NCBI GenBank assembly: GCA_964187785.1
Contig: OZ076409.1
Coordinates: 58,592,001-58,656,000, forward strand
Origin: Amphiscolops sp. MND2022
Lineage: Eukaryota
DNA: 64,000 nt
Direction: 5' to 3'
The stretch's first letter is position 1; each line of letters begins with the position of its first letter. Below, piece after piece: positions 15,701 to 54,608 of this stretch. The translations under genes and the position numbers were made by a program. The notes below the pieces were generated by a model that was not told where the DNA came from, did no database searches, and saw only the letters and a program-made list of their open reading frames with translations.

Positions 15701-15991
15701 CTAATTCCAGCGTTTGATAGAAAACATCATTTACCGACTGCTGCGACAAAGACTGATGAAAGAACATAAATTGAGTACTCAGATATGGCAACAAGGTCTA
15801 ATTTTCGGCGCAATTGTTTCTTCAAAAGAACATTACCCCTGTGGAACACTCTTCCGAGAAAAATGATAGAGAAAATTTCATACGAAACAATGAAAAAAAG
15901 AATCAAATCTTTTCCTTCTCAAAGATACGAAAAGGAAATAGACCGACCACAATATGGAAAAAAATGTTGGAGTGTTTACCGTTATACATAA
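12744..15991 (+). pseudogene. LINE ORF2: 2A-like peptide, APE endonuclease, reverse transcriptase (fragmented)
   Basis: ORF pieces 12744-13832, 13955-14137, 14349-14795, 14837-15121, 15221-15769 and 15785-15991 carry collinear EN and RT motifs. Confidence 0.9.
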
Positions 15992-23109: not shown

Positions 23110-26100
23110 GGTTGGTCTGTTGATTGTTTTCCTCCAGTCTTTGGCGTAAGTCTTCTGTTATAACTGAGTCGAGCATTCTGAAGTCTGGATTCACATTAGG
23201 CTTTGGGTTAGGTTGTAAATTATAGCGTCCGATTTTTTTAGGATTATATCCAACGACAATAGGCGTTAATTCAGCAGGTTTTTTTGGAGGGGGGGCATTC
23301 TATAGGCGGTGGAGACAAATTATAGGGATTATCACTGACATCCAGATTAAATGACGTAGCGTTATTGGAAGATGTTTTATCCTCATCAGAATTTTCAACT
23401 GTGGTTGTTTTAACCACCACATTTTCACGTTGTAATTGCGTTATCTTCTTTCTTGTCTGTGATTTCTGTGATTGTAGCTTTTTCTGACAACTTTTGCTTG
23501 GGTGTTCCGAAGAAAAAGTCTCCGAATGCGGTTTCCCAAGGTTGCGCGTACCAATCATTGTGGGTTGTTTTAACCTCTGGATCTGGAAGATAATCTTCCT
23601 CTCTGACTGTTACGTCAGGTACTCGCTGATTGTGCGCATATAGCCTTAGGCGAATCCTATGGAGGGTTTGCGTGAACCTTGTACCCGTTCTGCGCAGGAT
23701 ATAGTTGTTATTTGAAAGGACTTTGACTACAATATAAGGGCTAGTTCAGATGTAATTGTTGAAAGCGAATTTCATTGACTGATTATCAGCTTTCGGATTA
23801 ACCTTAAGTTGGCCAGGAAAAATCTTGTTGCGTCCAAAAATCAGGTGCTTCAACTTTAAACCGCAATATCTCCTGAACTATACAAGTCCGACAAACGATT
23901 TATACAGCGTTCGAAAGAGGAGCATTGGGGCTTTCAAATCAATTTTTAAACTGCTGGGCTTGGGGCCCGCTAGCGCGGGCTCCTTGCGCGCAGTTTTTTG
24001 CGCGAAGTCCTCCACTGGCGTGCGGCTTCGCCGCACTGGCTCCGAACTTTGCGCCAAAACTTTGCACGCGTCGTGTCTCTGCTTGCTTTCCAACATGTTT
24101 CAAAACATGCTGGGGACGCTTTGACCCAATGTTGATACCAGTGGGATAAAAGGGGCACAAACGAAACCTGGGAAAACGGAAAATCTGCACTTATTTTTCT
24201 TTTGATTTTTTTGCGTCATTTTCTGGGTTTTTGAGACATCACGTCAATTTTCCGTGAAAAGGCGCCGAATGCTGTGCAATATTGTCTGAAACTCTTATTA
24301 AAGGGTTTGCTTTACCATACAATCAGCTGGTGCGTTAACAATTTGCAGAAACAAAATGTGCCAAATTTGGCACATTGGCCAAGTTAAGGTTAAGAACGTA
24401 GCAGTAGTCGTTGACCTTGAGTGGCGTAGCCGTCGCTTTCTTGTCGTAGTATTGTTTGTACCCCAATGTAGGATTGCATAAGGTTGTCTTTGGCTGCTTG
24501 ATGTATCTCTGTTAACTGTTTTTGCAGTTCATCCGTTAGGTCTTCGTTCTTATCTTTTTTCCACTCTGGCTTTTTTCCGAGTTTGATGTCTAAGATGTTA
24601 TACGGGATACGTCCGTCGAATATTGTTGCGGGTTCACAGCCTAAGTTTTCGTGGTGTTGTAGTTCATGACTCCTGTTTGGACTTGGACGTATTTGTGCCA
24701 CATCGAACGTCTCTCGCCCGTTGATATTTTTAATGAGATCTTCAAGGAGGCATGAGTTCTCTCTAGTATGCCTATTGTTTGGGCGTGTTTCGTTGAAGCG
24801 TGGCTTATTCGTATGTCTAGTGTCTGGGCTTTTTGGTTGACCACTTCTGATCTAAATTGTGATCCTTTGTCAGTCAATTTGACTGTTGGCAAATAGCAAT
24901 GTCTTGTCATTACATCGATGATGCAACGTGCTACTGTTTTTGCAGTCATTTCTTGGGTTGTGTATGCAAAGAGGTAACGGGAAAAGACATCCATCATTGT
25001 ATTGATGTGTTGGTATCCGTTTGAGGAAGGTAGGTTTGGGAGTATGTCAACTTCCAGACAGTCTTCTGGTCCCATTGTGAGTTCAGTATTGCTCAGCATT
25101 TTGGGACGTATTTGTCTTGCGTCAATTTTCTTGTTGGCGATGCAGTCTGGACAGCTTGTTACTCTTGCTATGATTTTTCGTGCTAGGCCCGGGAAATATA
25201 ATTTTGCCCTGCATTCTTGTATCATTTTCGTGATTCCCGGGTGTTTACTTGTTTTTCCGTGTAATGTGGATAAAAGTTCAGGTACTAAATGTTTTGGGAT
25301 TATGACTTGATTGTGGGTGACTGACCCATCATCTCCGTAGTACTTGCGCTTGAGTACACCGTCTTTCATGATTATTCTTTCCTCGTGGCGGAGTAGATTT
25401 CTCCAACGCTGTTCAGTTTTGAGGAGATGTTGGTCATATTCTTCGTGGAGTACTCGTGATTTAAGTGCCTTGAGTATTGGGAAGCCATCATTATCGTTTC
25501 TGATGCGTGCGTTTTCTTTGATTGCTCCAAACGTGTAGACTGCGGAGTTGAGTGGTATCTTGATTACTTCAGTTACTTTTGTAGATAGTTCTTTGTTGTG
25601 ATCGTCGATAGCGCGTTGTTTGCTATGTGAGTTTCTGGCAAAATTGTCTTGCTTTGATTCTTTTTCTTCATCCGGGAGAAAAAAAGTTGTACTTCGTCAG
25701 CAACGTCCGATGATTGTAGGTTGACTTCAATAGGTGACGTTAGGAAGTCGTCCCTTAATTTCAATTGCACTTTTTCCTTGGGAGTTAGTTCAAGTCTGGA
25801 TAGGAAATCTGTTGCCGTGTTTTGGGAGCCTGCTACGTGCATGATGCGAATCTTGAATTGAAGGATGTAGTCGCAGGCATTCCATAGTGCAGGTTTTCCA
25901 TAGTTTTTGTTTGAAAAAACCATGTCACTGATCGGTTGTCTGTTAAGACCAGTGTTGGTATCGTTGTTTCCCATTATATATGACTATATTCGAAAAAGGC
26001 GCGGTATATGGCTAAAACTGTTTTGCAATATATTGACATCTTTAGTTGTGCCGGCGAGAAAACACGTGATCTGAACGCTACTGGTGCCAACTTTTTTTTT

Positions 26101-28865
26101 TCAGAGTGTAGTTTCCGTTCATCCTTTTATTTGATCATGAGAGCGTAGCCTGAAGCACGGAAGCTCGCGTCCGTCATTAGGACGTATTGTTTTCCAGCTA
26201 CTGGTTGTCTCAGTGCGAGTCGGCACGCTTCCGCTAGGCTAGCGTCGATTTGCTTGGAATTGTCGACAAGTTCTTCTGAGATTCGGATTTTGGAAACAAC
26301 TTTTAGGTGTTCATACATACTGACAAGGTTTTCTGATAGGCGTGGTGTGTAATTTCGGTAGTAGTTTACAAACCCGATATATTTTTACACTTGCTTTTTT
26401 GATTTCGGGAAACGGAGTTTGGAGAGAAAGTTTTCGATTTTTTGGTCTTGCAGGTCTACTCCGTTCTGGGTGATTGTTCTTCCGAGGAATTCGACCTGAG
26501 TTACGCCAAAGTGACATTATTTTTTGATTGTTAGTTTCAGTCCCGCTTCTCTGATGCACTTGAAGACTGCTCTGATGTTTTTGATGAGCTGTTCCGTTGT
26601 ATTCGCGGCTATGCCGATATCGTCAATGTAATGCGCACAATGATTTGCTTTGATGACTGAGTCACGGTACTCTCACATGAAGCTCAAGAAGGTCGACAGG
26701 GCTCTGCTTAGTCCTTGTGCTAGGCGCCGGTAGGCTAACGTCCTACTAGCAAAATTAAAAGCAAGTAATTCTACTGACCTTTGATCTGCCATTTGGAGGC
26801 AGTGGTACGCCTGGGAGCAGTCAAGATTGCAGATTTTCCCTGCTAGGTGTTGTGATGCGACTGAAAGGGTGCTGAGGTAGTCTCAGTTTGCCGTTGGGTT
26901 TCCCTTTGGCGAATATGTGGCTTGCGTATTTGGAGAATGGTAGTGTCGTGATTATTCCGTATCAATGAATGAGGGCTAGTTCTACTCTTAGGTCTCCTGT
27001 GAGATTGGTCGGGACAGGTAGACTCTGCGTGTACACTGGTTTGTCATTTTTTGGGTTTAGATTGACTTTGAATTGCGTGTTCATCCCGATGTCGAATCTG
27101 TGTCGTGCGAAGATGTCATTGATTTCTACTATTGTGTTTTCTAGGTTTTCTCGGTCTTTGCCCGTAATCAGTGAGTTTGTCCTTTTGGACATTGTTAGAA
27201 ACTAATTTCGGGATCCTCGTTCTCCGTTGGGTCAAGTTTTTCAAGCTCAGTCAGTTCCCGTAGTTCTTTCAAGATCCCTTTCTGGATGGGGGAGTGTTCT
27301 TGTTCATTTCCGGGCTTTTCTGGGGTTGGGAACTAGAAGTTTTCTTCATTGTTGTTGGGCGTTCCACTTGCATCAATTCGTTGATGTACGTTACAACGTC
27401 GTCGTTTGTTGGGAGGTTGAGTGCAGCTATGTCAACTGGACGGATCATCTTCGTTCCTTCCGGTTTTAAAATTTGCAGTTCTGCCACTTTGGTGTCTGCA
27501 GCTATTGGGTAGGGAAAATTGGCGGTGTTGGCGATCTTTATTGCTGCTCTCTTGTCTCTGGCAGTTGTTATTGCCGGGGCTACTATCAGTTTCGCGCATT
27601 CATCGAACTGCGGTAGGGTCTGAATGGTCTCAGTTATTGGGTGTTCACTACTTACAGGGATCGATGCGTAGATGATGCGAGTAGAATGTGTGGGTATCGT
27701 GTGTTTTGCGTCTGTTTTAATCGTGATTGGCTTGGGGTTGCACTTTTGCATTTCGTCGGTAAGCGCCACCGTGATTTGAATTTTAAGGAAGTCGATGGTC
27801 CCTTGGGCACTGTCAAGGATTGCGGCATGTTTTCGCAGAAACGTCAATCCTATTATGGAGAATGACGTCTGGTTGATGATGATGAACGTTTCCTTAAAGG
27901 TGTAGTCCCCAGTTTGAAATCGTATGGCGTACTTGGCGAGTGGTTGCTCAAACTCGGTGCTGGCGTATTGTACTTTGAAAGGGGGTGGAGGTGCCTTATT
28001 GATGATGCATTGGCTTGCATTTTGTCAAATTTTTTTCAGCGTCCCTTTCACTAATAGCAATAATATATGCGCCTGAGTCAACTAACGCATCAATCTTGAC
28101 GGTATTGAGTTCAACTGGGAGAAAAAGCATTCTCTTTTTCTTCTTGAGTGCGGTTGCAGACATCAACGGGATGTAATCATCATTTTTGCCGTGTCGTATG
28201 AATTCTTTGATGACATCCAGATCTTCGGGTAGTGGTGGTGGGCCTTCCGTTTGTTCTTCGTTGTTGTCCGTTACTGCACTAGCGGGTGCGGTTTGTGGTG
28301 GTGGAGGGGCAGAGGAGTCAATTGTATGTTCTCCTGATTTCCGTGTCCACAACGTCTTGTCTTCTATGCCTATTATATGGTCAGAGTTTATTGGTGTAGA
28401 CGTGACGGTGACGGGTACTTTTGGGGACGGTTCTGATTTTTTCAGAAATGGTGACAGAGGTGGCGAAACGTTTGGTATCTCTTCAGGCGGTTTTTGTGGG
28501 TTTGGGACCTGGATCTTGAAGGAGAGTTTGTTAGTGTCGTAAACGGCAGGTTCATCCCATGGGTCGCAACGGTAGTCCGTATCGTAAACAAATATTCTGT
28601 CAGTTTTTGATTCTGGCAGTTGTGGTTTGAGTGTAGCGTAATTGTCAGGGGACTCCGTTATCCATTGGGGGAGTGGTGTTGGGTCGTCTGGGTGTCTGGC
28701 ATTATGTTTGAGGATCATGCCTATGTTGCAACGTCGCTGCCAATCCTGAGTCGGTTCTTCGTTGCATTCTGTCATGAAATCCTCTTCGTAGCGATTTGGG
28801 GGGTCTTCGATCGTATATGCCCTCGCATCCACCGTTTCCCCAAAGCGGAGGCGCGGCGATTTCAA
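23110..28865 (-). pseudogene. Gypsy pol (protease, dUTPase-like spacer, RT, RNase H, integrase), fragmented
   Basis: ORFs 27996-28865, 27269-27847, 26962-27192, 26127-26318, 25573-25974 and 24641-25369. C-terminal GRYNLQPNPKPN near 23200. Confidence 0.9.
23802..24389. mobile_element. piggyBac-type MITE (588 bp) inserted in the Gypsy integrase
   Basis: TTAA duplications at 23798-23801 and 24390-24393; TIRs CCTTAAGTTGGCCA / TGGCCAAGTTAAGG (1 mismatch). Removing it restores DYCYVLNPKADNQSMKF. Confidence 0.9.
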
Positions 28866-30270
28866 GTATTCGGCTGAGAGGACACGGTGAGCACTGGCTG
28901 TCCGCTGATTTGGTTAGTTGGGATGGCAATTTTGCGCGTTTGCTTCCGTGGGTCATTTGCCGCGTTAGCTCCGTCCCGGTTAGCATTTTTCGGTTTTGTG
29001 CAATTTTCCGCACGTGCCGCACTGGGTTTTGGTGCTTCTGGTTGGTTTAAGTCAGTATTGCCCGTTTCGGTTGCGTAGTGTCGTTCTTTTTGTAGTCGAC
29101 GGCATTGCGCTTTGTAGTGGTCATATTTACCACAATGAAAACAATAACCCCTCTGTTGTTGTTCCTTCTTGCCTTCCGTCACTACTGCGTCCACTGTTTT
29201 GAGAGGGACTAGGGTCGTTTCATCAGGCGCTCCTAGGCCGTTTAGTCGCATCTCCCGCTCAAGGTGCAGATCGATATCGATGTACGGTTTATCTTCGAGG
29301 TACGCTCTAATGAGGATCTTTTTGACGTGATCCGGCATTTTAGCGTATATTGCTTTGTCAATGAACTTTTGCGCTTCGGAACCGGACGCTTCTTTTGCAG
29401 GTTCCTGTAGGGTTTCAATGATTTCAGGCAGTTTTTGTTTTGTGGGTCAAAATGCAGTGCGTCCCACTCGCATCTAGCTTTTGCGGAGGGTTGGAAATCC
29501 CCGAAAAGACGTTTGAATGCCGTTATAACTTCTTCTTGGTTGTCTTTTTTGGCATCCTCAAGGTTGCAGTACGCTTGAAGTGCGTTCCTTCTTAGTAGCG
29601 AGTGGAAGTGGTTGATTTTCTGTACCTCAGTGAGATGAGGGTACACTTTGATGTTATTTCGAAATGAGTCCGCAAAAAGTTCAAACTTTTTGGACTTACC
29701 ATCGAAAACAGAGAGCGTAGCAGTGAGTGCTTTCGGCATCGGGAGTAGGTTGGAGTGTGGGAAAGTCTGCGGTTGAGGTGCGAACAGTATTTTAGATCTT
29801 GAGGGACGGTCTCTTGCTTGTTCGCTGGAGACGCGTTGTTTTTTCCGTCGCCTATTGAGTTGATTTGTTGAGTCATTGAGGACTCATGTCACCATGTTAC
29901 GACTACTTACCGGTGTTGTTTTGGAGTTAATCGCATTTGATTTTACAGGTGTCGACGTTCTGGCTACGAAGATGTTTTCTGGCTCAGAATCAGTATCTTG
30001 ATCTTTTTGACTGATTGGACGTTTTTTTACTCAAAGGTGCTATTAGTTTAAGCATTTCTTTTTGGTTTTCAGCTAATATCTTTGTCAAATCGTTCAGGAT
30101 TTCTTTCCTCTAAGACGTTTTTATCTCATCGAGATTTTCAGGTTCAGCTCTAAGAAATTTGCTAGGACCAGCTACAACATTTTCAGATGAGTTATTTTCA
30201 GCTACAGAGTCTTCAAAATCTCGAAAAACTAGCTCAGCTACAGCTTTTCTCTTTTGACTTCGGGTTGTCC
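28862..30270 (-). pseudogene. Gypsy gag (frameshifted)
   Basis: ORFs 29242-29739 (FDGKSKKFELF..., HFHSLLR) and 28862-29338 (CCHC knuckle). N-terminus TTRSQKRKAVAEL near 30270. Confidence 0.85.
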
Positions 30271-30458
30271 TTTTCTATGTTGAAAATTTTCAGTCTTCGG
30301 TAAGATTTGAATTCTTCGGAGAATATAATTTGCGTTAATATAACGGAGCGGTTATATATCAACAGGTTACAAAATTAACCAGAATTACATTTCAATGCTA
30401 GGTATTTATACCTTACCAGCATCATTTGTTCCTCGCCTAAAATATCCTAGGTATCAAT

Positions 30459-31039
30459 GTTGATGTACGTTACAACGTCGTCGTTTGTTGGGAGGTTGAG
30501 TGCAGCTATGTCAACTGGACGGATCATCTTCGTTCCTTCCGGTTTTAAAATTTGCAGTTCTGCCACTTTGGTGTCTGCGGCTATTGGGTAGGGAAAATTG
30601 GCGGTGTTGGCGAACTTTATTGCTGCTCTCTTGTCTCTGGCAGTTGTTATTGCCGGGGCTACTATCAGTTTCGCGCATTCATCGAACTGCGGTAGGGTCT
30701 GAATGGTCCCAGTTATTGGGTGTTCACTACTTACAGGGATCGATGCGTAGATGATGCGAGTAGAATGTGCGGGTATCGTGTGTTTTGCGTCTGTTTTAAT
30801 CGTGATGGGCTTGGGGTTGCACTTTTGCATTTCGTCGGTAAGCGCCACCGTGATTTGAATTTAAGGGAAGTCGATGGTCCCTTGGGCGCTGTCAAGGATT
30901 GCGGCATGTTTTCGCAGAAACGTCAATCCTATTATGGAGAATGACGTCTGGTTGATGATGATGAACGTTTCCTTAAAGGTGTAGTCCCCAATTTGAAATC
31001 GTAGGGCGTACTTGGCAAGTGGTTGCTCAAACTCGGTGC
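30459..31039 (-). repeat. Near-identical duplicate of Gypsy pol segment 27380-27960
   Basis: Sequences match at offset 3079 with few substitutions. ORF 30447-30848 repeats most of 27269-27847. Confidence 0.92.
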
Positions 31040-31689: not shown

Positions 31690-32389
31690 GGGGACTTCGC
31701 GCTTTTTTAAAATCCAATTTGCTGGAAAACTTTCAAAACACTGAATGGGGAGCCTTTGGAGAAATTGAAAATTATCGAAAAAAATCTCAAAGTGCCGAAA
31801 AACTTGAAAGGGACCCTTCAGACTACTCCTTTTTCGTATGCTACGTTATAAATTGAATAAATGGGACCCTTTGCACAACAGCAGCTAACTTGGATCTGGC
31901 TCTTCAGATCGGCAATGCGGCCTGTGTTCTTGGAACTGTGGGCGACAGAGCTGCGTGCGAAGAAATTTATTACATATAGTTTATTTTCTTGAAAACCTGT
32001 ATATCCTTGCAGCTTTTTTAAAAATTTGTTTCTACCGGTCGACTGGGATAGTGGCTGGTATGAGCAGTTTGTTGGTTGTTTTTTTAGTGGTCTTCTTTGA
32101 TAGTGGCTGGTATGGGGTTCCCTACTTTCACGCAGACCACGGGTGTGTGTCTTCTCCACCCAACATGATGATACACATGGTACTTGATTGATGACGAATA
32201 TCCGTGATATCTGAAAGATTAAAAACTACTTAGATGGGTGCCCGCTGGCCGGTCGAGTGGTTTATTATTTTCTACGAAAATTTCAGTACGTTCCACTACG
32301 CTTACATTATGTTATCTGACGATAAAAGTTTTAGAAATTGCCCCTGTAACAGTCGCGCTCATTTTCTGCTGAAATGTGCCGACTAAAAA
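31690..32389 (-). mobile_element. Degenerate family A Helentron-like element
   Basis: Ends CTGTAACAGTCGCGCTCATTTTC...GTGCCGACTAAAAA, with internal GGGGAC/AGTGCCGAAAAA motifs as in other copies. Left boundary approximate. Confidence 0.5.
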
Positions 32390-32513
32390 TGCGTTCTTTG
32401 GTTTCCCTTTGAAATATTGTCATTTTTGAGAAACAAGTTGCTTAGTTTTTTTTCAACTAGTCGATTCCCCCAAACAGTTTGAATTTTTGCATTTTGTTCA
32501 TTTCAGAGCTTTC

Positions 32514-33977
32514 ATGACAGGCCTTTCGTCTAAAAGTGTGGGTTATCTTTTGGTGAAGTCCAATACGGTGTTCACTTCGAATCTTTCGAAGTCATGTACC
32601 AAAAGCTTTTCGACCAACACAAACTCCACTGTTACCAGTTTCCAGCCTGCTGTGAGATGCAGTTATCAGTTTTCATCTCAATCAAGTCTTTTTTGTCCGA
32701 GTAAACAGCTTTATTTGCAGTTTAGTCGAGAAGCCTCGAGAAAAGGTGGCTTCTTCAGTAAGTTGTATCAATCAATTCAAGACGAACTTGAACAAAGTAA
32801 AGAAATCAAAAGTTCTATCAAGAAATTCAGAGACGAAACAACCAAACTCGACGAATCAGATGCTTTGAAAAGCGCCCGGAAAAAGTATGAGTCCTTTGAA
32901 GAAGAAACTAGCCAGAAAACAAAAGTGCTAAAGGAGAAATTCTCGGATGTTTCTGGAGCTTTGAAAGGTAGCCTAGATGATATAAAAAGATCAGAACTTG
33001 GACAACAGACCACCAATGTAATCGAAAATGTGGGCAAAGGTGTAAAAAGCGCCGGTGAGACATTGAGTAAAGGTGGAAAAGTCATCACTGAAAGTGAAGC
33101 CTTCAAAACAGTAAGCGAAGCATCTGAAATTGTTCGGAAAAACATTGACGAAGAGTTAGCTAGAGCTCGAGTTTACAGTTCTCCCAAAATATTGAAACGA
33201 CGTTCTGATTTCAGAATGTTCTCAACAAAACAGGCTGAAGCATTCAACCCTGAAACTCATGATGTAAACGAAAGTGAGTTACGCATGGAGCTGCATAAAG
33301 ATGCAAGGTGGTACGCCAAGTGGCAAGACTTCAAGGATACCAACCCTATGATGAATAAAATGTTTGACTTGAAAAACCAATACGATGAATCTGAAAATCC
33401 GGTCATTGCCAGCACCAGATATATATCGGAGAAAATTTCCGGAATTGTTGGTGGTATACTGACACCCAACTCAACCAGCAAAGTTATGAGCGAGATTCGG
33501 AAAGTTGATCCTAGTTTCACTGTCACCCGTTTCAATGACGTATGTCATAAAATAATATTCCCTCATGTTGTTGAGGCTTTGTTTCATACAAAATTCGACC
33601 TTTTGGAGGACTGGTGTACTGCCCCTGCTTACAATAAAATTCGCGCCCAATTAGACCCTTTGATTAAACAAGGCTATAGAATTGAGTCTCACATAATGGA
33701 TGTTGGAGAGCCTGATGTTGAGACTGCCATCATGGAAGATTCAGTGCCAGTTTTGGTGAGTCGCTTCAATGTGCAAGCTCTGTGCATCATCAAAGATACA
33801 AGAGGCAAAGCACTTTCTCTTCCAGATGGAACAGCTTTGATTGGAGGCGGCGAGGAAGGAAAAGTAGACCAGTACATGTGGTTTGTAGCCTTGACCCGAG
33901 ACATGGACGACGTTGACCCAATTTCATCATGGAGGATAGGGGATGTTGAAATCAGGAGACACAAATTAGCTTTTTAA
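32514..33977 (+). CDS. TIMM44: Mitochondrial import inner membrane translocase subunit Tim44
   Basis: Ser/Thr/basic presequence-like N-terminus, coiled coil, LHKDARWYAKWQDFKDTNP, YDESENPVI, EIRKVDPSF, LLEDWC and a C-terminal Tim44 domain. Intronless; ATG 32514 follows TTTCAG. Confidence 0.93.
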   Translation: MTGLSSKSVGYLLVKSNTVFTSNLSKSCTKSFSTNTNSTVTSFQPAVRCSYQFSSQSSLFCPSKQLYLQFSREASRKGGFFSKLYQSIQDELEQSKEIKSSIKKFRDETTKLDESDALKSARKKYESFEEETSQKTKVLKEKFSDVSGALKGSLDDIKRSELGQQTTNVIENVGKGVKSAGETLSKGGKVITESEAFKTVSEASEIVRKNIDEELARARVYSSPKILKRRSDFRMFSTKQAEAFNPETHDVNESELRMELHKDARWYAKWQDFKDTNPMMNKMFDLKNQYDESENPVIASTRYISEKISGIVGGILTPNSTSKVMSEIRKVDPSFTVTRFNDVCHKIIFPHVVEALFHTKFDLLEDWCTAPAYNKIRAQLDPLIKQGYRIESHIMDVGEPDVETAIMEDSVPVLVSRFNVQALCIIKDTRGKALSLPDGTALIGGGEEGKVDQYMWFVALTRDMDDVDPISSWRIGDVEIRRHKLAF

Positions 33978-34169
33978 ATGTGAAAGAAAGTTTGTTTTCG
34001 CTCATTTTTGGAAAATGATATGAAGTATATCTCATTTTGACTATTCAATGCGAATTTGACTATCACTGAAAAAAACTATCTAATGTACCTCATTTTTACC
34101 AAATCGATCAAAAGTGGATTTGTGTTTTATACAAACATTTTCCTCAACTTTTTTGTTTCAGATTTAAAA

Positions 34170-35036
34170 ATGGGTATACGACCTTATTTGCCAATTCCTA
34201 GAAAAAGTCTCTTCAGATCTAAGCAACTACCAGGACCTTACAACCATTTATTCGATTATTTTGGTTTTCCTGTCGAAGGAATAATTTCTCAATTACCCAA
34301 ACATTATTTGGACCAGATAAAACCGTGTCAGCCCCCAAATAGAAACTGGAAAGTCCCCAACTACCCATATCATTTTATCCCTAAAGGTGCCAACAAGGCG
34401 CCTATTGAGAAAAAATACAAGCAAGCGATGTGGGCGCCTATTCCTGTCCTCTATCCGAAGCGTTCACGTGAAGAACTATGGTCAGGTGAGGGAATGATTT
34501 TTGGATTCCGTCAAAGAGATCGATACGATCAACCACACAGAACCATTTGGCATCCGAAACTGGAACACTGGACACTTTACAGTGAAATTTTGGACGAAAC
34601 TTTTGTTACAATTGTGTCAGACACAACTTTAGATCTCATAGACGAATGTCAAGGCTTTGACAATTTCATCTTGAAAACCTCTGCACAGGAACTGATGTCT
34701 GATTTGGCTATGAGAATTAAAGGCAGACTGTTGGTCTCGTTAGCAAAACAGGACTATTGGGAGAATGATGCTAAAATGAAACAGAAAATTCGAGAAAAGT
34801 ACAAAGAATTCAGGATTCCGTTAGAAGAAGCGGAGTGGGTTGGCTTGACTCCACAAGATGCAGTTTTCAAATTACAAATTTCGCAGTTGCCTGATTACAG
34901 ACCCCTCAAAGAAGTTTTTGCCGATGAAGAGAAAAAGTTGCCTGAAATTCCCTCTTTACTGAAAAACTCAGATACTTCAAATGTAGATAAACCTAGTTTT
35001 GGATCCAAAATACGGAGATTTTTCAGAAGTTCTTGA
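34170..35036 (+). CDS. MRPL28: Mitochondrial large ribosomal subunit protein bL28m
   Basis: PIPVLYP..LWSGEG, W.PKL...LYSEILD...TLDLIDE..GFD.FILKT, IPLEEAEWVGLT match metazoan MRPL28. Intronless; ATG 34170 follows TTTCAG. Confidence 0.93.
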   Translation: MGIRPYLPIPRKSLFRSKQLPGPYNHLFDYFGFPVEGIISQLPKHYLDQIKPCQPPNRNWKVPNYPYHFIPKGANKAPIEKKYKQAMWAPIPVLYPKRSREELWSGEGMIFGFRQRDRYDQPHRTIWHPKLEHWTLYSEILDETFVTIVSDTTLDLIDECQGFDNFILKTSAQELMSDLAMRIKGRLLVSLAKQDYWENDAKMKQKIREKYKEFRIPLEEAEWVGLTPQDAVFKLQISQLPDYRPLKEVFADEEKKLPEIPSLLKNSDTSNVDKPSFGSKIRRFFRSS

Positions 35037-35160
35037 TAATTTAGTTTTCGAATAATGCATGCATGTTTTATAGTTTAGTCCAAGCTATTCGGCGTACAAC
35101 AATCAATCGTAATTATGCTTCAACAAACCTCAAAAATATTTGAAAGTATTCACATTTCAG

Positions 35161-36222
35161 ATAGAATAGGAGCATGTCCAGTCGTTGTTGGTAAAACTAC
35201 AGAAACGTGGAATTGTCAGTGGCTTCAATGTTGGTAAGTAAAAAAGAGACTGTTAATTGACAAAAAATTGTCTAGAAAAACAGTAATTGTTTCATGAATT
35301 CATGTTGAAGTTGGTAATATGGAGAATTGGATGTCAAATTTGAGATGAAAAGCTTTCGATGTGCTGGTTGAAAACAGAGGGTCTTGACTTTTATCTATTT
35401 TTCTAAATGTTTGTCTAAATTTTCAGGTGCGATATAAATCATTGGGGTGAAGAAGTGATAGCCGAAGATTACGGCAGAAGCAGAGGCGACAGTGAAAATG
35501 CAACTAGTTCCAGCAGTGACGAAGATGTTGAGAAATCAATAGTCAAATCGGCACTCGAGGGTGCTCGAGTTCCCAAATGAGCAATAAAAATGAGTTCCAA
35601 GAGGCCCTATTAAGTGTCGTCCGACCATCTCGAATCCCTTACCACGAATGTTCTGTCTATAAACAAAAGGTCGGCTCCCGTATAGATGCTGATATGATGC
35701 GTTATATGATGCAAAAGGGTGTTAAACCGAAGAAGAATACCGAAGAATGGGATTCACTTCTGATACCAAAGGTGTCAACTTCCCGATACCCGAAGATGAA
35801 ATTGAGGATAAAGCACCTTTGCCGCCGCCGTTTGGATCAAAATGATCGACCCATCCAGGTTCAGTTTTGTTTTACCTGTTCGCCTTACGGTTTTGCTGAC
35901 AAAACTAGTAGTTCACCATTGAATGTAGAATATTTGCGGCGCTGTCTTGAGATGAAGCAGAAATTTTCTCGTTTGTTGATGCCAATTTTTGTAACAAATG
36001 TCTACTCTTCTAGAGGGCAGTCTTCTTACTATTGGAACCGCGAGAATGATTTGGTCAGTGAATTATTTGCAGTCGAAAGCCTCCATTTAGAGCAATCCTC
36101 AGCTGACTCACAAGTTTGAACGCGACAACTTTGATTGAGAGGGTGAACTGGAGCCGATCGATCCCGCGGCGTATGACGAAGCTCTCTCCAGGTTTGTAAA
36201 TCTTTTGAAACATTCACTCTAA
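35161..36222 (+). pseudogene. Unidentified gene with one intron (35234-35426), apparently frameshifted
   Basis: Acceptor at 35160, GTAAGT donor at 35234 and TTTCAG acceptor at 35426. One frame runs to TGA 35578 overlapping ATG 35577 of a 180-aa ORF, and a coding-like tail (EGELEPIDPAAYDEALSRFVNLLKHSL) lies in another frame after a stop. Confidence 0.4.
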
Positions 36223-36879
36223 AGCCCCTCTAAAAAGTTCAACGACTAAAATTCAAATATTCTTAAAACGTAGAATAAAGTGATGGTAACTCGTTTTTAA
36301 AACATACCGTAGGGTTTCAAAGTAATGGAGCTTTTACTTCAGTGTTCACAGAACATTTCATTGATTTCTTTTCGAAATGGTATATGAAGAAACGATACGA
36401 GCAGAAAAGGTCAATATTGAATAGGGTATCCTTTCTTCTGCTATATCAGCAATACAAGCGCTCAAGAATATCGTCCTGAAGGTTCTTGGCGAAATTATTT
36501 TTCGCCCATATTTCATGAGAAAGGAAAATATTAAAATCAGCTACGTTTTTTTTGAACAAAATTTGCCATGGTAATCCAAGTTGAACGGTTTTCTTTGATG
36601 TAAATTTAGTTTCATGCGATATGTATTTGTAGAGATTTTTGGACTTTTTTGGTTGACCCCAAAACGACAAAATTCTCCGATTTTTACCGTTTTTACGCAA
36701 TTTTTGTGAAATTTCTGAAAGACTTGGAGGCCTGGTATGTTAGAATCGTTGGAAAAAGAAAAAATTGGTTGTCCATGAGGAAAACTTTTTAAAATAGAAA
36801 AAAATGGTATAAATTGTTCTCAAATAGGCTTTTTGAAGAGTTATCTGCATGCTTATGTAAATGCTTCAAATTGATCCCA

Positions 36880-38453: not shown

Positions 38454-40590
38454 GTTTTTCTCCAGTTCCTTGGTGGCAAATAGGAAATTTTTTTCCAAAT
38501 GTGAATACATCTTGGAGACTCGAAGCTTTAGTTAGTATGTGCCAAAGATATTTCGATATTATTGATTTCGGATGGTAGTGGAGGCCAGCTCCCTGCAAAA
38601 CGAAAGCTTTCTTGAATTTTGCTTCGTGAGCCGGGGCATTGTCATGTTGGAAAAGTTGATGTATGTGTATATCTTGAGAAAATGGTCTCGCAAGTTCTTG
38701 ATGAAGCAGTCCGAATTAACTTTAGTTTGAATAGAAATCGACAATTTTTCTGCGAATACAGCGCCAAACCGTGAGTCCTTGCAAGAAGTATTTTTGAATT
38801 TTTTCAAAAAAATAATTTAGAACGTTCACTCATTCTTGATTTTTCTGGTCGAATAACGAAAAATTTTCTTCGGATTGAGCTCCTACCATGTCTTGGCGGT
38901 AAAAATGACAACTTTGCTTAGAAAATCACGAAATGTTTGGCTGTGAAACTGCATCATTTTGAAACACTACTGTACTTATATCCAAGAATCGCCAGTTAAT
39001 CCTATTCCAGGTGAAATTTGGTTTAATGAAATTTTCAAATTTCACTTGCATATAGAAGAATTGTGATTACATTTCGGACTTTCGTCTGTCCTTTGCCTGG
39101 AATTTAATCTCTTCTTATTTTACAGAGGCATTTGATCGGCCGGTCTCGTGCAGCAAAGAGCTAAGACAGCACAGTTTCGGGCCCTCTCTTCCAACAGCGA
39201 CCTTATCCTAGTCCAGGAGACGTGTTCAGCTAATCGGAGGGAACCTTCGGAATAAAGCGAAAGTTGATTCAATAACGTGTGTTACCCTATTACAAAAATC
39301 CCAAGCAAATCGAAAGGAGGTTAAATGTGTGTATCAGTTGGGTCAAAGACAGCTTCAGTTTGACACTGACCACGAGAGTGATGAGGCGGGCAGCCCCGAA
39401 GACAAGACAGAAAATTCCAAATGACAATGAAAATTATTTTTGCTGTCTGAAAACGTGGAATTTATAGCTCATTAAAAATGATTTTTTTCTGAGTTTGGTT
39501 TTTTCCCGCTCAAAAATTGTCAGGATAATGTGAGATTTGAGGCACGCGCTGTTTTACAGTTATGTTCAATCACCAATTTTAGTAATAGTCTTCAGAGATG
39601 TGAATTTAGATTAACATATAGACTACGGACTTACATTTTAGTTTAATCAATTTTTGAAAAATTTGTGATGGTGTTCAGTTCAGTTCACGAGGAATTTCTT
39701 AGTGCTTCTATAAACAAGTCGCGCTCAAGACTCAGATAGTAGAGTCTTTTGAAAATGCTCAACGACAAATAATGGGAAGGCATTTCATTTTTGAAATTGG
39801 TTGACTGTTTTTGATGCACTTACGAAATCACTTTTAAGACGTATATGGTTGACCGTTCGCATCACTGGTCATTGTCTTTCATTCTGTCAAATAAGGTATT
39901 GTTCTAGACTGTTCTAGTACTTTCTGTGGAATGCCACGAGTTTGCTTGTCTTTTCCCATGTGTGAGTAGATTTAAAATGAAGATTATCCCGGGGGAATTC
40001 ACTGTGGATTTCAAAGAATTTCATTCAAAATAGGTGAATCTTCAACGATGAATTTTCTGTCAACTGATGTACCACACAGCTAAGATATGACACCATTAAT
40101 TAGCGAAGCGGAGAAATTTCATAAGCAAATTGATTTAGCTGTAACCATTTTAATCGTAATTTTTCAAGAGTGCACACTACAATGACCACATATTCATTGT
40201 TTCATGTGACAACTAGCATTCAAAAGTCCGTTAGAAATCTACCAAAATCCATTGAATTTTGACACGGATTTCCTGAAATCACTGAAAAGTTGTATTCGAA
40301 GTGTTTGTTCCATCCATAAGCAACTACACGCTTTTTGACGGTCAGCTTTCCTCTCAAATTCGAAAATTTCCCACTCTGGAATTTACCTATAGAATGCTTT
40401 GTGTATGAAATTAGACCATCGAATAGATCTTTGTTTTGATGCATTGCAAGTATGAGAGCATAGCAGTTTCGACAGTATCCACAGCGAGCGTCGACACAGG
40501 ATGCTCAATTGGAATCGACCTCGTACATTTGTTTGCTGAAATGTTATTTTTTAAATCTTAGTCTTGTTCATTTGTTTGAGATAAAGGCCA

Positions 40591-40700: not shown

Positions 40701-43030
40701 GTATCATTCAAGTATCCTTATACTACGAGTTAATTCTTTTTTAATGCTGATGAATACAAGCACACGTAGCTGAGTTTTTAGCTACAACAATACGCCCACC
40801 AAGCATCAGCATATTTCGTTCACGTTTTCTATAGCAGAGGGTGGAAACGGAGAAGCTAGTGGCTCAATGTCGACGAAAAGTTCGGAAATTTTTCAAACCT
40901 TGCACAAAAAGTTGAAGTGAATCAGTTTTGATATTTTTTGTTCTGGCAACTTACTAAGGAAAAAGTTACAAGAAACAAAAGTACCATAACTGATTCACTT
41001 GAACGTTTGAACGTTTTGTGCAAGTTTTGAACCGCTTCCAAGCGTTTTTGTGGATACTTTTTCAGTAATCTTATCTGTTTTCACTTGTTGCTCAGACATC
41101 TCCATTAATATATAATGTTTACTTCGAAGCTAATCTCTATTTCGTTGTATTGTATGCAAAGAGCTCCATCTTTTGACTTGGAAAAATGTTTTTTTTTAAA
41201 GGCGGCTAAGGAATTATTCTGGGCTACTGAATTATGGACGGAAAGAAGTTCGGTATGAACCGGTGTGGTTCCTTTTGTTTTCATCGTTTGGAGCATTTCT
41301 TGACTACTTTATTTGAATAGGAATGAAATAATTAAAGTTTTAGAAACCAGTCCTTTAAAACTGATGTCATCTTCCGCGAACGACATAAGTCGGTGCCCCA
41401 CTTAAGACTCAAAATGCGCAAATTACTTCAATGCTCCAAGGAATTCTTCTTGAACAATTCTCAATCTCAGTAAAAAAAACACAAAAGTACTTCAACAAAG
41501 GGTCGAGTATTTTTTTTTAAATCTCTGCTGAAAACTCGTTGTTTTGGACTTGAAAGGATTTTTCTCTTTGAAAAATCAAAGCTGAAACAACGCTTTTGTG
41601 AAATAAAATTTTTCCCTTAAAAGTCGGTCTGTGACGAAAAACCCACAAGGGGAACCTTTGTGGTTGAAAGACCTTTTATTAAAAATATCACAAAAACAAA
41701 GCCGGACCCAGTGTTTTGACGTGTATTACAGTAGCTTGTACCTTACTCGGGTATTGTCACAAGACAAAAGAGTATAGTACATACACGATTGTTTTCTACA
41801 ATACCGGACAAGATCTTCCTGTATTATAAATTATCGGCAAGCGTGTAAACTTATAGAGCACGCATTAGAAATTGCTATACCTCAATCCGACCTAACAAGA
41901 TGGAATTCGGAGTTAAGGTTATTCGAAACGATCTTTTAAAACAGTGATTCTATCAACAGCTCGCTTGCTAGTTGTGGGTTTGGTTCGCTCGAACTAAACA
42001 CTCATGAAAAGCAGACTTTGGGCGAAATTGTACCAGTTTTAGAATAATTTTTTCCATTAAGAATATTTTAGGTAAATAAACTTTATATATAAAGATGGAA
42101 AAATACCGTTTATAGTACTTGAGTATCTCGGAATACCTACCGTTACATACAAGAAATTTTGAATGTTATACATAAAATACCGAGTACCGGAAACTTTTAT
42201 ACTCGTCAAATCAATGGTCGTGCCTCTTTTTGGAAAATCCACCTTTTTTAGCAAACCAAATAGCTAATTTGGCATCCAGCATGAAATGGTCAATTCGACC
42301 GGATTGAAATAATAAACAACGAGAAGCCAATTCAATAAATAAAGCGCGAAGTTCTAAATGGAATTTAATTCATGAAGGGCCATCTAACATGAAGCGCTGT
42401 CTAAAACTTGAGGATTTCTTCTGGTACTTAGTCTGAAGTTTGGAACTTTGATTTTAGGGATAAACACAAATGTGAGCAGTCTCCAATACCACCTTTCATC
42501 ACAAAGTACAACGGACGACATTTTCTGGTGACCAACACTGGCCATTTTTTGTTCACGAAGCAGGGTTGTCATGTTTTCAACAGGTCCGTTAAGAACAGTT
42601 TGGAACTCATCGAAAATAAATTTGTACCTCTCATTTGTTTCAGAGCACATTTAATTCTCTCAATGTTATGAATGCTGGAATTTTCTCAATGTTATGAATG
42701 CTGGAGGTATTCGCGCTCAACTTGGCTGTGAGAAAACAAAAAGTTTCCATGATTCGTCATAAACTACAATGGTTAATTTTCTGTTAAATTGTTTCTTTTG
42801 TAGAGAGGTCATGAATAAAATTACTGTATTTATCGCAGCTAAGGCCGCGACGTTCATTCTTTAAACCGATCCAAAACTCGGTTTTCAAAAGAGCTGCTTT
42901 TTTCCGAAAAATTCGGTACATATTCGCCTTTTACTGTTGACTCTCAGTTTTGGTTGAAACCGTGAAATACTACTTGTTTGAAGCGTGAAATTGTTGAAAA
43001 TGTTTTCATGACAATCTTGTTGCGGAGCAG

Positions 43031-45484
43031 GTCTCGGAAAGAGCTGCCACTTCTTATTCGTTCCGGTCTCTCAGTACTCCGGATCCTCTGAGCCTCAATA
43101 ACGAGAATCGCCGACAAGAGGAATTTGAACTTGATTCTGATTACTCGTTCGGCTCCAGAAGAAGTTCTAAAAAGACAGAACATTTTTTGAAACTATCTTT
43201 CGAAACTATGTTGCAACTGAAACTAGCAATCGGAGACTGGGTTTATGTCAATATCATTGGACACGGGCTGCTTTTGTCTGGCAAAGGGTACAACTTTGTA
43301 GCTCAGGTAGCGCCATCTAGCGTTTTAAAAGGTGGTGATGCGAAGTATGAACTTCCTCGGGAGGTTGCATCTCAATTAACGAAGAATAAAGCCGAAGTTT
43401 ATTTGTCTCCAATTGCCCTTCAAGAATGCAGAGAGTTTTCGGGTGTGACTTTCAGACGCGAAGACAAAGAGAGTTTTAGAGATTACCCTTTTGAAGAAAA
43501 ATTGGAGCAACAAATGATTCGAAATGCATTCAAAGAGAAGCTGTGTTTTATGGGAGAAGTTTACCGTGTGGATTGTTACAGAGTGCAGACCACTTTCAAA
43601 ATCGTCGGCACCAATAGTCTTGAGAGTGACTTGCAAAATTTAGGTTTTTTGGATTCGGATGTGAAAGATTTCTCGTGCGGTGATGCTCGAAGCAAATACA
43701 ATACGAACAGCTCCTTAGACGGTCAAACAACTTCGGACAAAATCGATTATCTAGGAAGGGCAGAAACTTTTTTCCACCGACCCGAATTCGGGTTTTGTTC
43801 GGCAAACACAGATATAAGTTTGCTGTATGATTTTAACCCTCAGTGTTTCGACTCTAACTTTGGCGAGGAGCAGATGAAAAAACGCGGGTTTGTCAAATTT
43901 GGTGGTTACCAGAGCTTGAAAGATCGGCTTCGAAAGGAAATAGTTACAAATATAGTTCCTGGAGATAAACCAAATTTAAGAGTGTCGAATCTGCTTTCAA
44001 AGGATAAAATTGTAACAGGAATTGTTATCCATGGTTGCACTGGGGTTGGAAAAAGTTTGCTGGCTAAATTGATTGTTGAGGAGTTGAAAATAGACCCTCA
44101 GTTAGTTTTCACAGAGATTCCAACCGGTTCAAAAAGAACTCATCATGCAAATTTAATTTCCAAACCATGCGTTTACATACTTGATGATTTACAGTTCAAG
44201 ATGCTGGGAAGTGGCCAAAAACTTGGAGCTGATCAAAACTTGAGTGAGAAACTTTTTCCTGCTGATATTCGTAAGTTTTTCGACAAGCTGAGATTTCGAG
44301 TTCAAAACAAAGTTTTTGTTATTGGAATTTGTTCTGACATCGAAATGCTTGACATAGCTTTAAGGAGAGACGGCTACTTTGAACTGGAATATGAAATCCC
44401 GGCACCTTCGCAAAAAGACCGTTCGAGTATTTTGAACATTCTAGTTGAGAAGTCTTTTAGTCATCTTTCGCTAAAGCCTGAAGACATGCAGGAAATATCT
44501 GAGCGAACACATGGGTATACTGCCAGCGATTTGATCTCACTTCTAAAGCGGGTATCTTCAGAAATGCAGGACGGAAGTTTCGAGGCAGGAACTTGGAAAG
44601 ACGTCATTGCTAAAGTGAGACCTTCTGCAATGAAAGAAATTGTCTTGGATATCCCAAAGGTCAGATGGACTGATATTGGTGGTCAAAACGAACTAAAACA
44701 GGTATTGAAGCAATGTATAGAGTGGCCCATTCAAAAACCGGAACTTTTCCGGTCTTTTAATATAAAACCTCCGAGGGGTATTTTGCTGTATGGACCTCCT
44801 GGTTGCTCAAAAACCATGATTGCCAAAGCCATCGCCACCGAGACTGGGTTGAATTTCTTGAGCGTCAAAGGTCCTGAAATTTTCGATAAGTACGTCGGCC
44901 AATCTGAAAAGTCAATTCGCAAACTTTTTCAGAAAGCGAGGTTGGCTGCTCCAGTTATAATATTTTTCGACGAAATTGATGCCATAGCCCCTGCACGTGG
45001 AAATTCGTCAACCAATAGCGTTTCAGACCGAGTTCTCACGCAACTTCTGTCCGAGTTGGACGGTATTGAAAAACTTGATGACGTAACGATTGTTGCCGCG
45101 ACTAATAGACCTGATATTATTGATCCTGCTTTGCTGAGGCCCGGGAGAATTGACAAACTGATTTACGTTCCTTTGCCTGATCAAGAAACCCGAAGGCAAA
45201 TTATTGATTTGAAACTGAAGAAACTTCCAACCAGTAATGAAGCAGAAAATTCCATTGACGTCGAAGGTTTGGTTTCAAGGACCTTGGGATTTTCGGGCGC
45301 CGAAGTTTGTGCTTTATGTGACGAAGCTGCCATGTTAGCCCTTGTGAGGTCAACTATGGAAAGCACTCCGAATGATAAAACGTTTATAATCGGGTCGGAT
45401 TTTGAACAAGCTTTTCAGAAAGTTAAACCTTTGACAGACGAAAGAACTTGGAAAAAATTAGAGAATTTTGCGACAGGGAGATAA
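43031..45484 (+). CDS. SPATA5: AAA+ ATPase SPATA5/AFG2A (Drg1/Afg2 orthologue), large terminal exon
   Basis: Two AAA modules. D2 has WTDIGGQ, GILLYGPPGCSKT (AFG2-type Walker A), FFDEIDA and ATNRPDIIDPALLRPGRID. The frame is open from a CAG acceptor at 43030. Confidence 0.85.
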   Translation, partial: VSERAATSYSFRSLSTPDPLSLNNENRRQEEFELDSDYSFGSRRSSKKTEHFLKLSFETMLQLKLAIGDWVYVNIIGHGLLLSGKGYNFVAQVAPSSVLKGGDAKYELPREVASQLTKNKAEVYLSPIALQECREFSGVTFRREDKESFRDYPFEEKLEQQMIRNAFKEKLCFMGEVYRVDCYRVQTTFKIVGTNSLESDLQNLGFLDSDVKDFSCGDARSKYNTNSSLDGQTTSDKIDYLGRAETFFHRPEFGFCSANTDISLLYDFNPQCFDSNFGEEQMKKRGFVKFGGYQSLKDRLRKEIVTNIVPGDKPNLRVSNLLSKDKIVTGIVIHGCTGVGKSLLAKLIVEELKIDPQLVFTEIPTGSKRTHHANLISKPCVYILDDLQFKMLGSGQKLGADQNLSEKLFPADIRKFFDKLRFRVQNKVFVIGICSDIEMLDIALRRDGYFELEYEIPAPSQKDRSSILNILVEKSFSHLSLKPEDMQEISERTHGYTASDLISLLKRVSSEMQDGSFEAGTWKDVIAKVRPSAMKEIVLDIPKVRWTDIGGQNELKQVLKQCIEWPIQKPELFRSFNIKPPRGILLYGPPGCSKTMIAKAIATETGLNFLSVKGPEIFDKYVGQSEKSIRKLFQKARLAAPVIIFFDEIDAIAPARGNSSTNSVSDRVLTQLLSELDGIEKLDDVTIVAATNRPDIIDPALLRPGRIDKLIYVPLPDQETRRQIIDLKLKKLPTSNEAENSIDVEGLVSRTLGFSGAEVCALCDEAAMLALVRSTMESTPNDKTFIIGSDFEQAFQKVKPLTDERTWKKLENFATGR

Positions 45485-54100: not shown

Positions 54101-54608
54101 CTCATTTGTGGGTTTAGTGTCAAGTATCCGTATTAAATTAATAGATGAATATAATAGGAATGACTAACAGTTTACATATTAATACAAATCAACAATGTAA
54201 AATAGGTAGTTGATTAGGAAACGGATAATTCAGTTCGATGAAATTGTATTTGGCCAGGTCCGCTGGTAGTTGTGGCTTATCGAAGAAATGTTCCCGTCAC
54301 AGGTGGCTGCTTGGGACAATACGTTACAACCGGTTGCCGTTATATTGGAAAAAGCAAGAGCGTCTCGTTTTTGTCTAGGGTGCTTTTGTCTGGTGTCCAA
54401 TGCTTTATCAACTTGAAACTAACAAAGAAAACTCGGGAAACTAACAACTTGAGAACTGAAAAAGAAAACAATGTCAAGAGAGGACTTTTTGAGTTGACGT
54501 CCCAATTAAGGGAATTTTGAGAATTGCTCAGGACTTTTTATTGAAAAACAAGCCGAGAACGGCCAAAGTCGGCGCCATATCTAAGGCTCAAAATTGAAAA
54601 GGGGGGAC
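51138..54608. repeat. Tandem duplication, 1759-bp period (51138-52849 and 52897-54608, 47-bp unique spacer)
   Basis: ORF pairs are offset by exactly 1759. I saw only two substitutions (52182/53941 and 52609/54368). Confidence 0.95.
51300..51900 (-). mobile_element. Gypsy-like leader and gag N-terminus (third family); duplicated at +1759
   Basis: MPSIRRQKAKARKLKEMDLLSDFENMDVILG is preceded by the same ATGCTG / GGTAT-hairpin leader motif as the other gag starts. Confidence 0.5.

Follow-up and report, generated by a model that had tools for sequence, protein, structure and literature searches.

A likely two-gene TIMM44–MRPL28 operon with predicted spliced-leader trans-splicing in an acoel genome

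Operons are expected in animals that possess a spliced leader (SL). In acoels, SL trans-splicing is already known, and the mechanism itself with it: it has been published for Convoluta pulchra and for Symsagittifera roscoffensis, which is reported to have one predominant leader, 30.2% of genes trans-spliced, and a 1.1-Gb genome of 34,493 genes (PMC9911081; preprint 10.1101/2022.08.27.505549). The words operon and polycistron occur in neither the accessible text of that paper nor that of the preprint, a 2008 table enters the Acoela as "+" for trans-splicing and "?" for operons (PMC2481426), and we found no acoel operon described in the literature. As the accessible portions of the respective papers present them, the operons of Macrostomum lignano mostly hold two genes, have a commonest gap of ~100 bp, and favour conserved genes (PMC8629364), those of chaetognaths were called at <250 bp plus SL reads, show no operon-specific leader, and contain metabolic genes (PMC12460157, PMC2481426), and intergenic gaps have a median of 1 bp in Ciona and measure ~30 bp in Oikopleura (PMC7986045).

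The window analysed here is a 64-kb, repeat-rich stretch of DNA (Table 1) in which TIMM44 and MRPL28 lie head-to-tail on the plus strand. The first-pass annotation had described two intronless mitochondrial genes in this arrangement, and ORF analysis bears this out with one intact open frame for each, of 487 aa for TIMM44 and 288 aa for MRPL28 (bL28m). The TIMM44 product matches Pfam Tim44 at E 1.3e-16, with further backing from homologues, alignment, and tree, and is 67% identical to the protein of Symsagittifera, an acoel other than the window species; MRPL28 is assigned by homology search to bL28m homologues and by its tree, and is 66% identical to Convolutriloba macropyga XP_075263266.1. 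Both ATG starts agree with the starts of the homologues, and both protein trees place the sequences among acoels with support of 100/100. Between the TIMM44 stop codon and the MRPL28 ATG lie 192 bp, and 124 bp separate the MRPL28 stop from the end of a third TTTCAG, the same values on recounting as were first given. The spacing falls within published operon criteria of 250 bp and 1 kb and is far longer than that of Ciona or Oikopleura (PMC7986045). The locus shares a repeat-rich worm genome with M. lignano, which differs in phylum and leader and in having SL sites that were read-mapped, whereas those here are predicted (PMC8629364). Chaetognaths have three leaders and SL reads behind their operon calls, while the TIMM44–MRPL28 operon is a prediction from sequence (PMC12460157, PMC2481426). 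The likeness to nematode SL2 and tunicate operons would lie in a leader that provides downstream genes with their 5′ ends (PMC7986045).

Table 1. Features of the TIMM44–MRPL28 locus (window positions 32344-36279)
Feature	Position	Strand	Basis and remarks
Dispersed repeat, end	32344..32389		self-BLAST, 89% to 55018-55063
Pyrimidine tract + TTTCAG, candidate TIMM44 trans-splice acceptor	32477..32506	+	+1 A; ATG 7 nt on; pyrimidine rank 3/66
TIMM44	32514..33977	+	Pfam Tim44, homologues, alignment, tree
Spacer 1, stop to acceptor, 184 nt	33978..34161	+	27% GC; no AATAAA; no strong donor
Pyrimidine tract + TTTCAG, candidate MRPL28 trans-splice acceptor	34132..34161	+	+1 A; AG-free for 45 nt; ATG 8 nt on; pyrimidine rank 2/66
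MRPL28 (bL28m)	34170..35036	+	homologues, tree
Spacer 2, 124 nt, weak TTTCAG at end	35037..35160	+	+1 A; ATG 13 nt on; pyrimidine rank 52/66
Possible first exon, third transcript	35161..35233	+	ATG 35174; weaker donor at 35191
Probable cis intron, GTAAGT to TTTCAG	35234..35426	+	+1 G; 29.5% GC between 41% and 46% GC flanks
Acid-rich open frame, TGA 35578-80	35427..35580	+	TGA overlaps next ATG; AATAAA at 35583
Orphan 180-aa ORF, 195 codons stop to stop	35577..36119	+	shuffle test; no credible homologue
AATAAA, possible 3′ end of third transcript or whole cluster	36274..36279	+	sequence match

The three TTTCAG sites first reported (32501-06, 34156-61, and 35155-60) were all confirmed, as was their distance of 7-13 nt to the next ATG. 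TTTCAG is also the splice acceptor of C. elegans. The T-rich tract claimed before each of them holds for the first two, which rank third and second in upstream pyrimidine content among 66 TTTCAG sites, and fails for the third, which ranks 52nd and has 29% T. The hexamer is common, with 67 copies on the window's plus strand, and the ease with which the third site was matched after the fact illustrates how two ordinary, independently transcribed intronless genes might carry TTTCAG by coincidence; yet only 17 of 1039 plus-strand ATGs, the three cluster sites included, have a TTTCAG ending ≤13 nt before them, and two conserved starts would both have one by chance about 3 times in 10,000. The first two acceptor-like sites thus exceed chance expectation and, given their pyrimidine ranks, coincidence is a very improbable account.

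Donor sites were scored against a generic donor consensus (maximum 9). No GT in either spacer scored above 6/9, in agreement with the earlier statement that the spacers hold no strong donor, so that at the sequence level the MRPL28 acceptor, with its high rank and 45 AG-free nucleotides, has no nearby cis donor. Donor-like sites elsewhere, at 31506 (7/9) upstream and at 33274 and 34486 (8/9) inside the two coding regions, were counted against an operon. The one at 31506 and another at 32143 could serve a shared non-coding first exon spliced in cis to TIMM44 or MRPL28 as alternative 3′ acceptors, with no trans-splicing at all, and TTTCAG does terminate a probable cis intron at 35426. The DNA upstream of TIMM44, however, is mostly retroelement and dispersed repeat, with ~110 nt of unique sequence between the repeat end and the first acceptor; both acceptors carry +1 A, as do 69 of 95 SL junctions, whereas the probable cis acceptor carries +1 G; and relatives have an SL system. 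We consider such cis use improbable.

The SL context was drawn from a contig scan with one leader pattern, taken from the published leader, which returned 95 SL-led contigs and 3 SL RNA genes. The contigs share a 22-nt stretch with the leader of S. roscoffensis, a member of the same animal group (PMC9911081), and two leader variants differ upstream of the searched pattern. The first ATG lies within 13 nt at 63 of the 95 junctions, and the combination of +1 A with an ATG at ≤13 nt, which the TIMM44 and MRPL28 acceptors both display, occurs at 42/95 junctions vs 7.5% of AG sites taken over the whole plus strand of the window. A single mismatch separates the 8-nt 5′ UTR of MRPL28 from the 5′ UTR of SL-led contig L014, and the SL-led contigs include mitochondrial proteins, MRPS2 and NDUFA9 among them. 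The search for an SL RNA that had been proposed at the outset yielded the three genes in related acoels and none within the 64-kb window, where the leader pattern and Rfam both gave 0 matches; viral contigs likewise gave 0 matches to the pattern. TIMM44, MRPL28, and the third unit are absent from the 110 SL-bearing loci, a small sample in which 30 have only 300 nt behind the leader. Neither the metagenome contigs, the collection behind the SL-bearing loci, nor the genome contigs yielded an MRPL28 relative in a profile search built on the MRPL28 alignment; the shortest metagenome contig seen was 1004 nt, and MRPL28 contigs below 1 kb may be absent from that collection. The absence of both genes and of the third unit from the SL-bearing loci, the window's lack of an SL or an SL RNA gene, and the lack of a precursor were counted against an operon. 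Because both protein trees place the animal among acoels, SL trans-splicing is published for S. roscoffensis and C. pulchra, and the scan turned up SL RNA genes as well as SL-led contigs, its assignment to a group with SL trans-splicing is right; the window species itself presumably has an SL.

Linkage of the two genes appears to extend to relatives. Eight of 10 genomic contigs bearing MRPL28 equal a TIMM44-bearing contig in exact length, two of these being just 51 and 56 kb long, and the Convolutriloba proteins XP_075263265.1 (TIMM44) and XP_075263266.1 (bL28m) carry consecutive RefSeq numbers in one record. Equal contig sizes and accession order suggest that the two genes are linked in three further acoel lineages, across which protein identity is 62-67%. 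Contigs with no listed partner (2/10 for MRPL28 and 3/11 for TIMM44), together with the reliance on contig sizes and accession order, were counted against an operon. Five JGI/Logan contigs of 965-1004 nt contain the MRPL28 frame in full, as two Logan contigs (1588 and 1618 nt) do the TIMM44 frame; these short contigs are probably RNA assemblies, and their sizes are as expected of separate messages.

Sequence search found neither AATAAA nor ATTAAA in either spacer, in contrast to C. elegans SL2-type operons, in which an AAUAAA 3′ end signal precedes the trans-splice site by ~100 nt. This difference from typical C. elegans operons was also counted against an operon. Spacer 1 has no notable fold (z 0.63); two 5-mers within it complement the SL donor but are too short to count as a Ur-like element, and spacer 2 and the upstream DNA have none. 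A spacer 1 devoid of AATAAA would suit one stable, unresolved two-gene mRNA from which MRPL28 is translated by re-initiation, as would the finding that the cluster sharing contigs with the Symsagittifera TIMM44 lists no RefSeq MRPL28, which a fused annotation could cause. Set against this, the homologous frames occupy separate short contigs of ~1.0 and 1.6 kb, and a strong acceptor directly precedes the MRPL28 ATG, which makes such an mRNA scarcely credible.

Taken together, the evidence makes it likely that TIMM44 and MRPL28 are a two-gene operon, co-transcribed and SL trans-spliced; this reading is favoured because a 192-bp gap in a repeat-rich window, strong acceptors at both conserved starts, and conserved linkage coincide, and because both sites match the SL-junction context and SL-led contigs include mitochondrial proteins. 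A single promoter upstream of 32500 would drive both genes, the TTTCAG acceptors at 32506 and 34161 would receive the acoel leader by trans-splicing, the TIMM44 3′ end would be made inside the 184-nt spacer without an AATAAA, and the outcome would be two capped single-gene messages with native 5′ UTRs of 7 and 8 nt. Both the use of these acceptors by the SL and the single promoter are proposed here by inference. One promoter does not follow from close spacing plus trans-splicing, a point counted against an operon, as many SL-spliced genes are monocistronic in the accessible literature. Both genes could instead be SL trans-spliced from separate promoters, with MRPL28 transcription starting in the spacer or late in TIMM44 and leaving a short outron. 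The acceptors, the +1 A, and the short distance to the ATG suit monocistronic trans-splicing equally well, many SL-spliced genes are reported outside operons in Macrostomum (PMC8629364) and tunicates (PMC7986045), and no polycistronic precursor was seen among the SL-led contigs, with a second frame of ≥80 codons in only 1 of 68 of full extent. Just 184 nt would nevertheless have to accommodate a promoter and the outron as well as the 3′ UTR and end of TIMM44, and linkage kept at such protein divergence suggests a constraint such as co-transcription; separate promoters are therefore rather unlikely, though they retain appreciable weight.

The SL-resolved operon first proposed for this locus is supported indirectly, by spacing, acceptor context, and conserved linkage, for two genes of an animal from an SL-bearing group, and its third cistron is not. 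The third TTTCAG is a weak acceptor with the +1 A, and the ATG at 35174 behind it closes after six codons if unspliced, which a weaker donor at 35191 would avoid. The 180-aa ORF has no acceptor adjoining its ATG; a frame of its length arose in 0/5000 shuffles, and its single-sequence AlphaFold model (built without an alignment) has a pLDDT of 37. Homology searches gave no credible homologue for it, and none of 99-315 aa for the third unit; the sole phmmer match, P0101, was rejected as a sum of short alignments to the ankyrin repeats in a scallop protein. The third unit has no PDB match, Atlas match, or Pfam family, just GUCT at E 0.1 with a 39-aa frame, and the acid-rich frame has neither a Pfam family nor an Atlas match. 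Codon scoring left the frame unsettled: per codon, the long frame scored -0.03, real genes 0.03-0.09, off-frame readings -0.10 to -0.16, and two short acidic frames 0.23 and 0.31; a minus-strand reading was no better. The unit could also be a single longer gene interrupted by a series of one-base breaks. A third gene as a member of the operon is not supported. A third, spliced transcript may follow and be co-transcribed with the pair, a weaker proposition than the pair itself and a doubtful one.

More tentatively, acoels may have old, conserved SL-resolved operons, with TIMM44–MRPL28 having remained a single transcription unit in four or more lineages even though the genomes are large and rich in repeats, inner 3′ ends cut without AAUAAA in coupling to trans-splicing at the next acceptor, and a third orphan unit carried at the cluster end; we regard this as possible rather than probable. 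Public RNA data for S. roscoffensis and C. macropyga allow this to be tested directly on a conserved, named gene pair. Operon status also bears on acoel gene annotation. If true, conserved SL-resolved operons would be so far undescribed for Xenacoelomorpha, and the presence of operons in a phylum near the bilaterian base would bear on the number of times they arose in animals.

TIMM44 and MRPL28 each occupy a single open frame on the forward strand, and we consider it likely that they form an operon of a known type, made up of two genes and not three. The first-pass annotation had proposed that these genes and a following unit constitute a polycistron resolved by spliced-leader (SL) trans-splicing, each member being preceded by a T-rich tract ending in TTTCAG. 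The three motifs are present as described, with the next ATG at 7, 8, and 13 nt, and so are the gaps of 192 bp (TIMM44 stop to ATG) and 124 bp (MRPL28 stop to third acceptor). Because TTTCAG occurs often (67 copies on the window's + strand), sites were ranked by the pyrimidines in their upstream 24 nt (66 scored, with one omitted at <60 nt from the window start). The tract was borne out for the TIMM44 and MRPL28 sites (ranks 3 and 2 of 66), whereas the third site ranked only 52. A TTTCAG ending ≤13 nt before an ATG was found for 17 of 1039 ATGs, our three sites included, giving a chance of ~3 in 10,000 for two starts that conservation had already defined; a coincidental placement of frequent motifs is thereby made very improbable.

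Coordinates of the gene pair, its acceptor-like sites, and other features of the window
Feature	Position (strand)	Frame or unit	Remarks
TIMM44	32514-33977 (+)	487 codons, single frame	Tim44 domain
MRPL28	34170-35036 (+)	288 codons, single frame	ATG 34170; matches bL28m proteins; start agrees with starts of acoel homologues
Third unit (candidate)	~35161-36279
TTTCAG sites	32501-06, 34156-61, 35155-60 (+)
LINE-like element	~12200-15800 (+)		Broken; weak RVT_1; upstream of cluster
Gypsy-like element	~24600-31000 (-)		Broken; integrase, protease, DUF1759; upstream of cluster
Acceptor-like site, then protein-like frame	39125-39424 (+)		Frame interrupted by one stop; last 70 codons match no Pfam family
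AFG2A/SPATA5-like AAA ATPase	42638-45484 (+)	828-codon single frame	No ATG in first 70 codons, start likely requires upstream exon; TTTCAG at 42638-43, followed by A at +1; both gene ends bear short direct duplications
Near-identical long tandem duplications	~51150-54590 and 55000-60000	Units of ~1.7 and 2.8 kb, judged visually	Either real or assembly artefact
Polypeptide N-acetylgalactosaminyltransferase fragment	61335-61823 (-)		Intron-free; probably a pseudogene piece

Neither spacer holds a strong GT donor, in agreement with the earlier description, the best GT reaching at most 6/9 against a generic donor consensus of our own making; the same consensus gives higher scores to donor-like sites upstream, at 31506, and within both coding regions. 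Cis-splicing of the two genes from a shared exon is given little credence. AATAAA occurs at 33354 and 33633 (within TIMM44), 35583, and 36274 and is absent from both spacers, so that the TIMM44-MRPL28 spacer differs from those of C. elegans SL2 operons, in which AATAAA is the rule.

The gene pair appears to be linked in other acoels as well. In trees of 17 TIMM44 and 18 MRPL28 rows hand-picked from the matches, the window grouped with Symsagittifera and Convolutriloba rows at 100/100 both times, on its own branch with relatives of 80-92% identity, which by these sequences identifies the species as an acoel distinct from those two. Convolutriloba macropyga XP_075263266.1 fell in a cluster of 66%-identical MRPL28 homologues, and RefSeq proteins of Symsagittifera and Convolutriloba were present in the TIMM44 clusters. 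P0050, an MRPL28 match from a Symsagittifera-type contig, is longer by 44 residues, and the end of this extension would weakly fit an acceptor situated ~20 nt ahead of the true ATG. Linkage in relatives was judged from equal contig sizes and accession numbers rather than from their DNA, using 9 of 42 MRPL28 matches, 4 of 29 TIMM44 matches, and the window's own proteins. Acoel MRPL28 proteins lay on 10 distinct ENA/NCBI contigs and TIMM44 on 11 (window's contig excluded), with eight sizes common to both (845220, 51209, 257644, 596217, 213217, 188018, 56085, and 48883530); MRPL28 contigs of 2978 and 14597 and TIMM44 contigs of 9117, 20225, and 56557108 had no partner among those listed. The eight come from three lineages, and several of them are probably different haplotypes or assemblies of a single species. 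The Convolutriloba pair, XP_075263265.1 and XP_075263266.1, sits on one record, and we take the consecutive numbers to mean neighboring genes.

Whole MRPL28 frames (292-293 aa) were found on five JGI/Logan contigs of 965-1004 nt (83-122 nt non-coding); two Logan contigs, 1588 and 1618 nt long, carry the complete TIMM44 frame (487 aa; 124-154 nt non-coding). If these contigs are RNA assemblies, each mature message covers one gene and has short ends. We rate an unresolved two-gene mRNA as the least probable reading of all. Such contigs fit a resolved operon and trans-splicing of transcripts from separate promoters equally well; the latter is the main rival, although we regard it as unlikely.

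A leader system is documented in relatives. The S. roscoffensis genome has one predominant leader with 30.2% of genes trans-spliced, and the words operon and polycistron are absent from the accessible parts of that paper and its preprint (PMC9911081); a 2008 table scores the acoel Convoluta pulchra as yes for trans-splicing and "?" for operons (PMC2481426). A 22-nt piece of the published leader, used to scan metagenome contigs, returned 110 loci, their acoel origin being based on the leader match alone, with the leader ≤40 nt from the contig 5' end in 95 and internal in 15. Two of the contigs, L085 and L104, share 77% of their DNA and 90% of their protein sequence, a hint that more than one species may be represented. 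Three internal loci (L042, L028, and L055) represent SL RNA genes: the final AG of the leader runs straight into a GT or GC donor, and an Sm-like stretch rich in U and a hairpin at the 3' end are also present (fold z -3.25 in L042). They are near-identical across ~100 nt, the GC donor being that of L028, and two SL RNA variants differ immediately upstream of the published leader. Judging by the junction, the last A of that leader most likely belongs to the target exon as its first base. The 12 other internal loci (L016, L024, L072, L077, L025, L034, L049, L057, L075, L081, L087, and L108) have the leader within a longer contig; in the first four it precedes an ORF1-like frame and then an endonuclease and/or reverse transcriptase frame, and these appear to be LINE copies starting with the leader, as though trans-spliced RNA had been retroposed. 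The literature matches listed included leader-tagged retrogenes in dinoflagellates and none in acoels, and no leader was found near the window's own LINE-like element.

The base after the leader was A in 69, G in 15, and T in 11 of the 95 SL-led contigs, and the first ATG followed within 13 nt in 63. Both +1 A and a near ATG occurred in 42/95, versus 7.5% when every AG on the window's + strand is counted; all three window sites match this pattern, at a modest likelihood ratio of ~6 each. The products, scanned in 67 of 68 fully available SL-led contigs (L039 omitted), are in the main housekeeping proteins, including ATP synthase alpha, a mitochondrial carrier, M16 peptidase, aconitase, NDUFA9, and MRPS2. 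Three results count against an SL operon: TIMM44, MRPL28, and the third unit are all missing from the 110 loci, only one of the 68 contigs (L059) has a second frame of at least 80 codons, and neither leader nor SL RNA gene was found in the 64-kb window.

The third unit has a weak acceptor, and its ATG (35174) runs into a stop after six codons. A cis intron probably follows, from GTAAGT at 35234 to TTTCAG at 35426 (29.5% GC versus 41% and 46% in the flanks). With this donor the frame stays closed, while a weaker donor at 35191 would fuse it to an acidic frame, for a product of 56 residues; its stop at 35580 overlaps the ATG of a 180-aa ORF. This ORF is probably not due to chance, since 0/5000 shuffles of the region gave a 195-codon frame; searches returned no credible homologue, and no confident structure model was obtained. 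As the first ATG opens a frame of <30 codons in 19/95 SL-led contigs, a short first frame is compatible with trans-splicing. The unit is probably a spliced transcript, and its status as a third cistron is doubtful; the proposed operon likely retains its first two genes and loses the third.

For TIMM44-MRPL28, we favor with reasonable confidence a model in which one precursor would begin upstream of 32500, the leader would be joined in trans to the acceptors at 32506 and 34161, and the 184-nt spacer would supply the TIMM44 3' end. The two genes, their spacing, the motifs, the acoel affinity, and the leader system of relatives are established; what we infer is that the leader occurs in this species and is added at the two sites, and that the genes share a promoter. 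From the accessible text of the sources, the pair would work like Macrostomum (PMC8629364) and chaetognath (PMC12460157) operons, assuming leader use in the window, while its gap length is unlike that of tunicate operons (PMC7986045). The literature matches listed, drawn mostly from outside subscription journals, held no description of acoel or xenacoelomorph operons (Hofstenia and Convolutriloba included) or of TIMM44-MRPL28 as an operon pair. Operons thus seem to be undescribed in the phylum of this animal.
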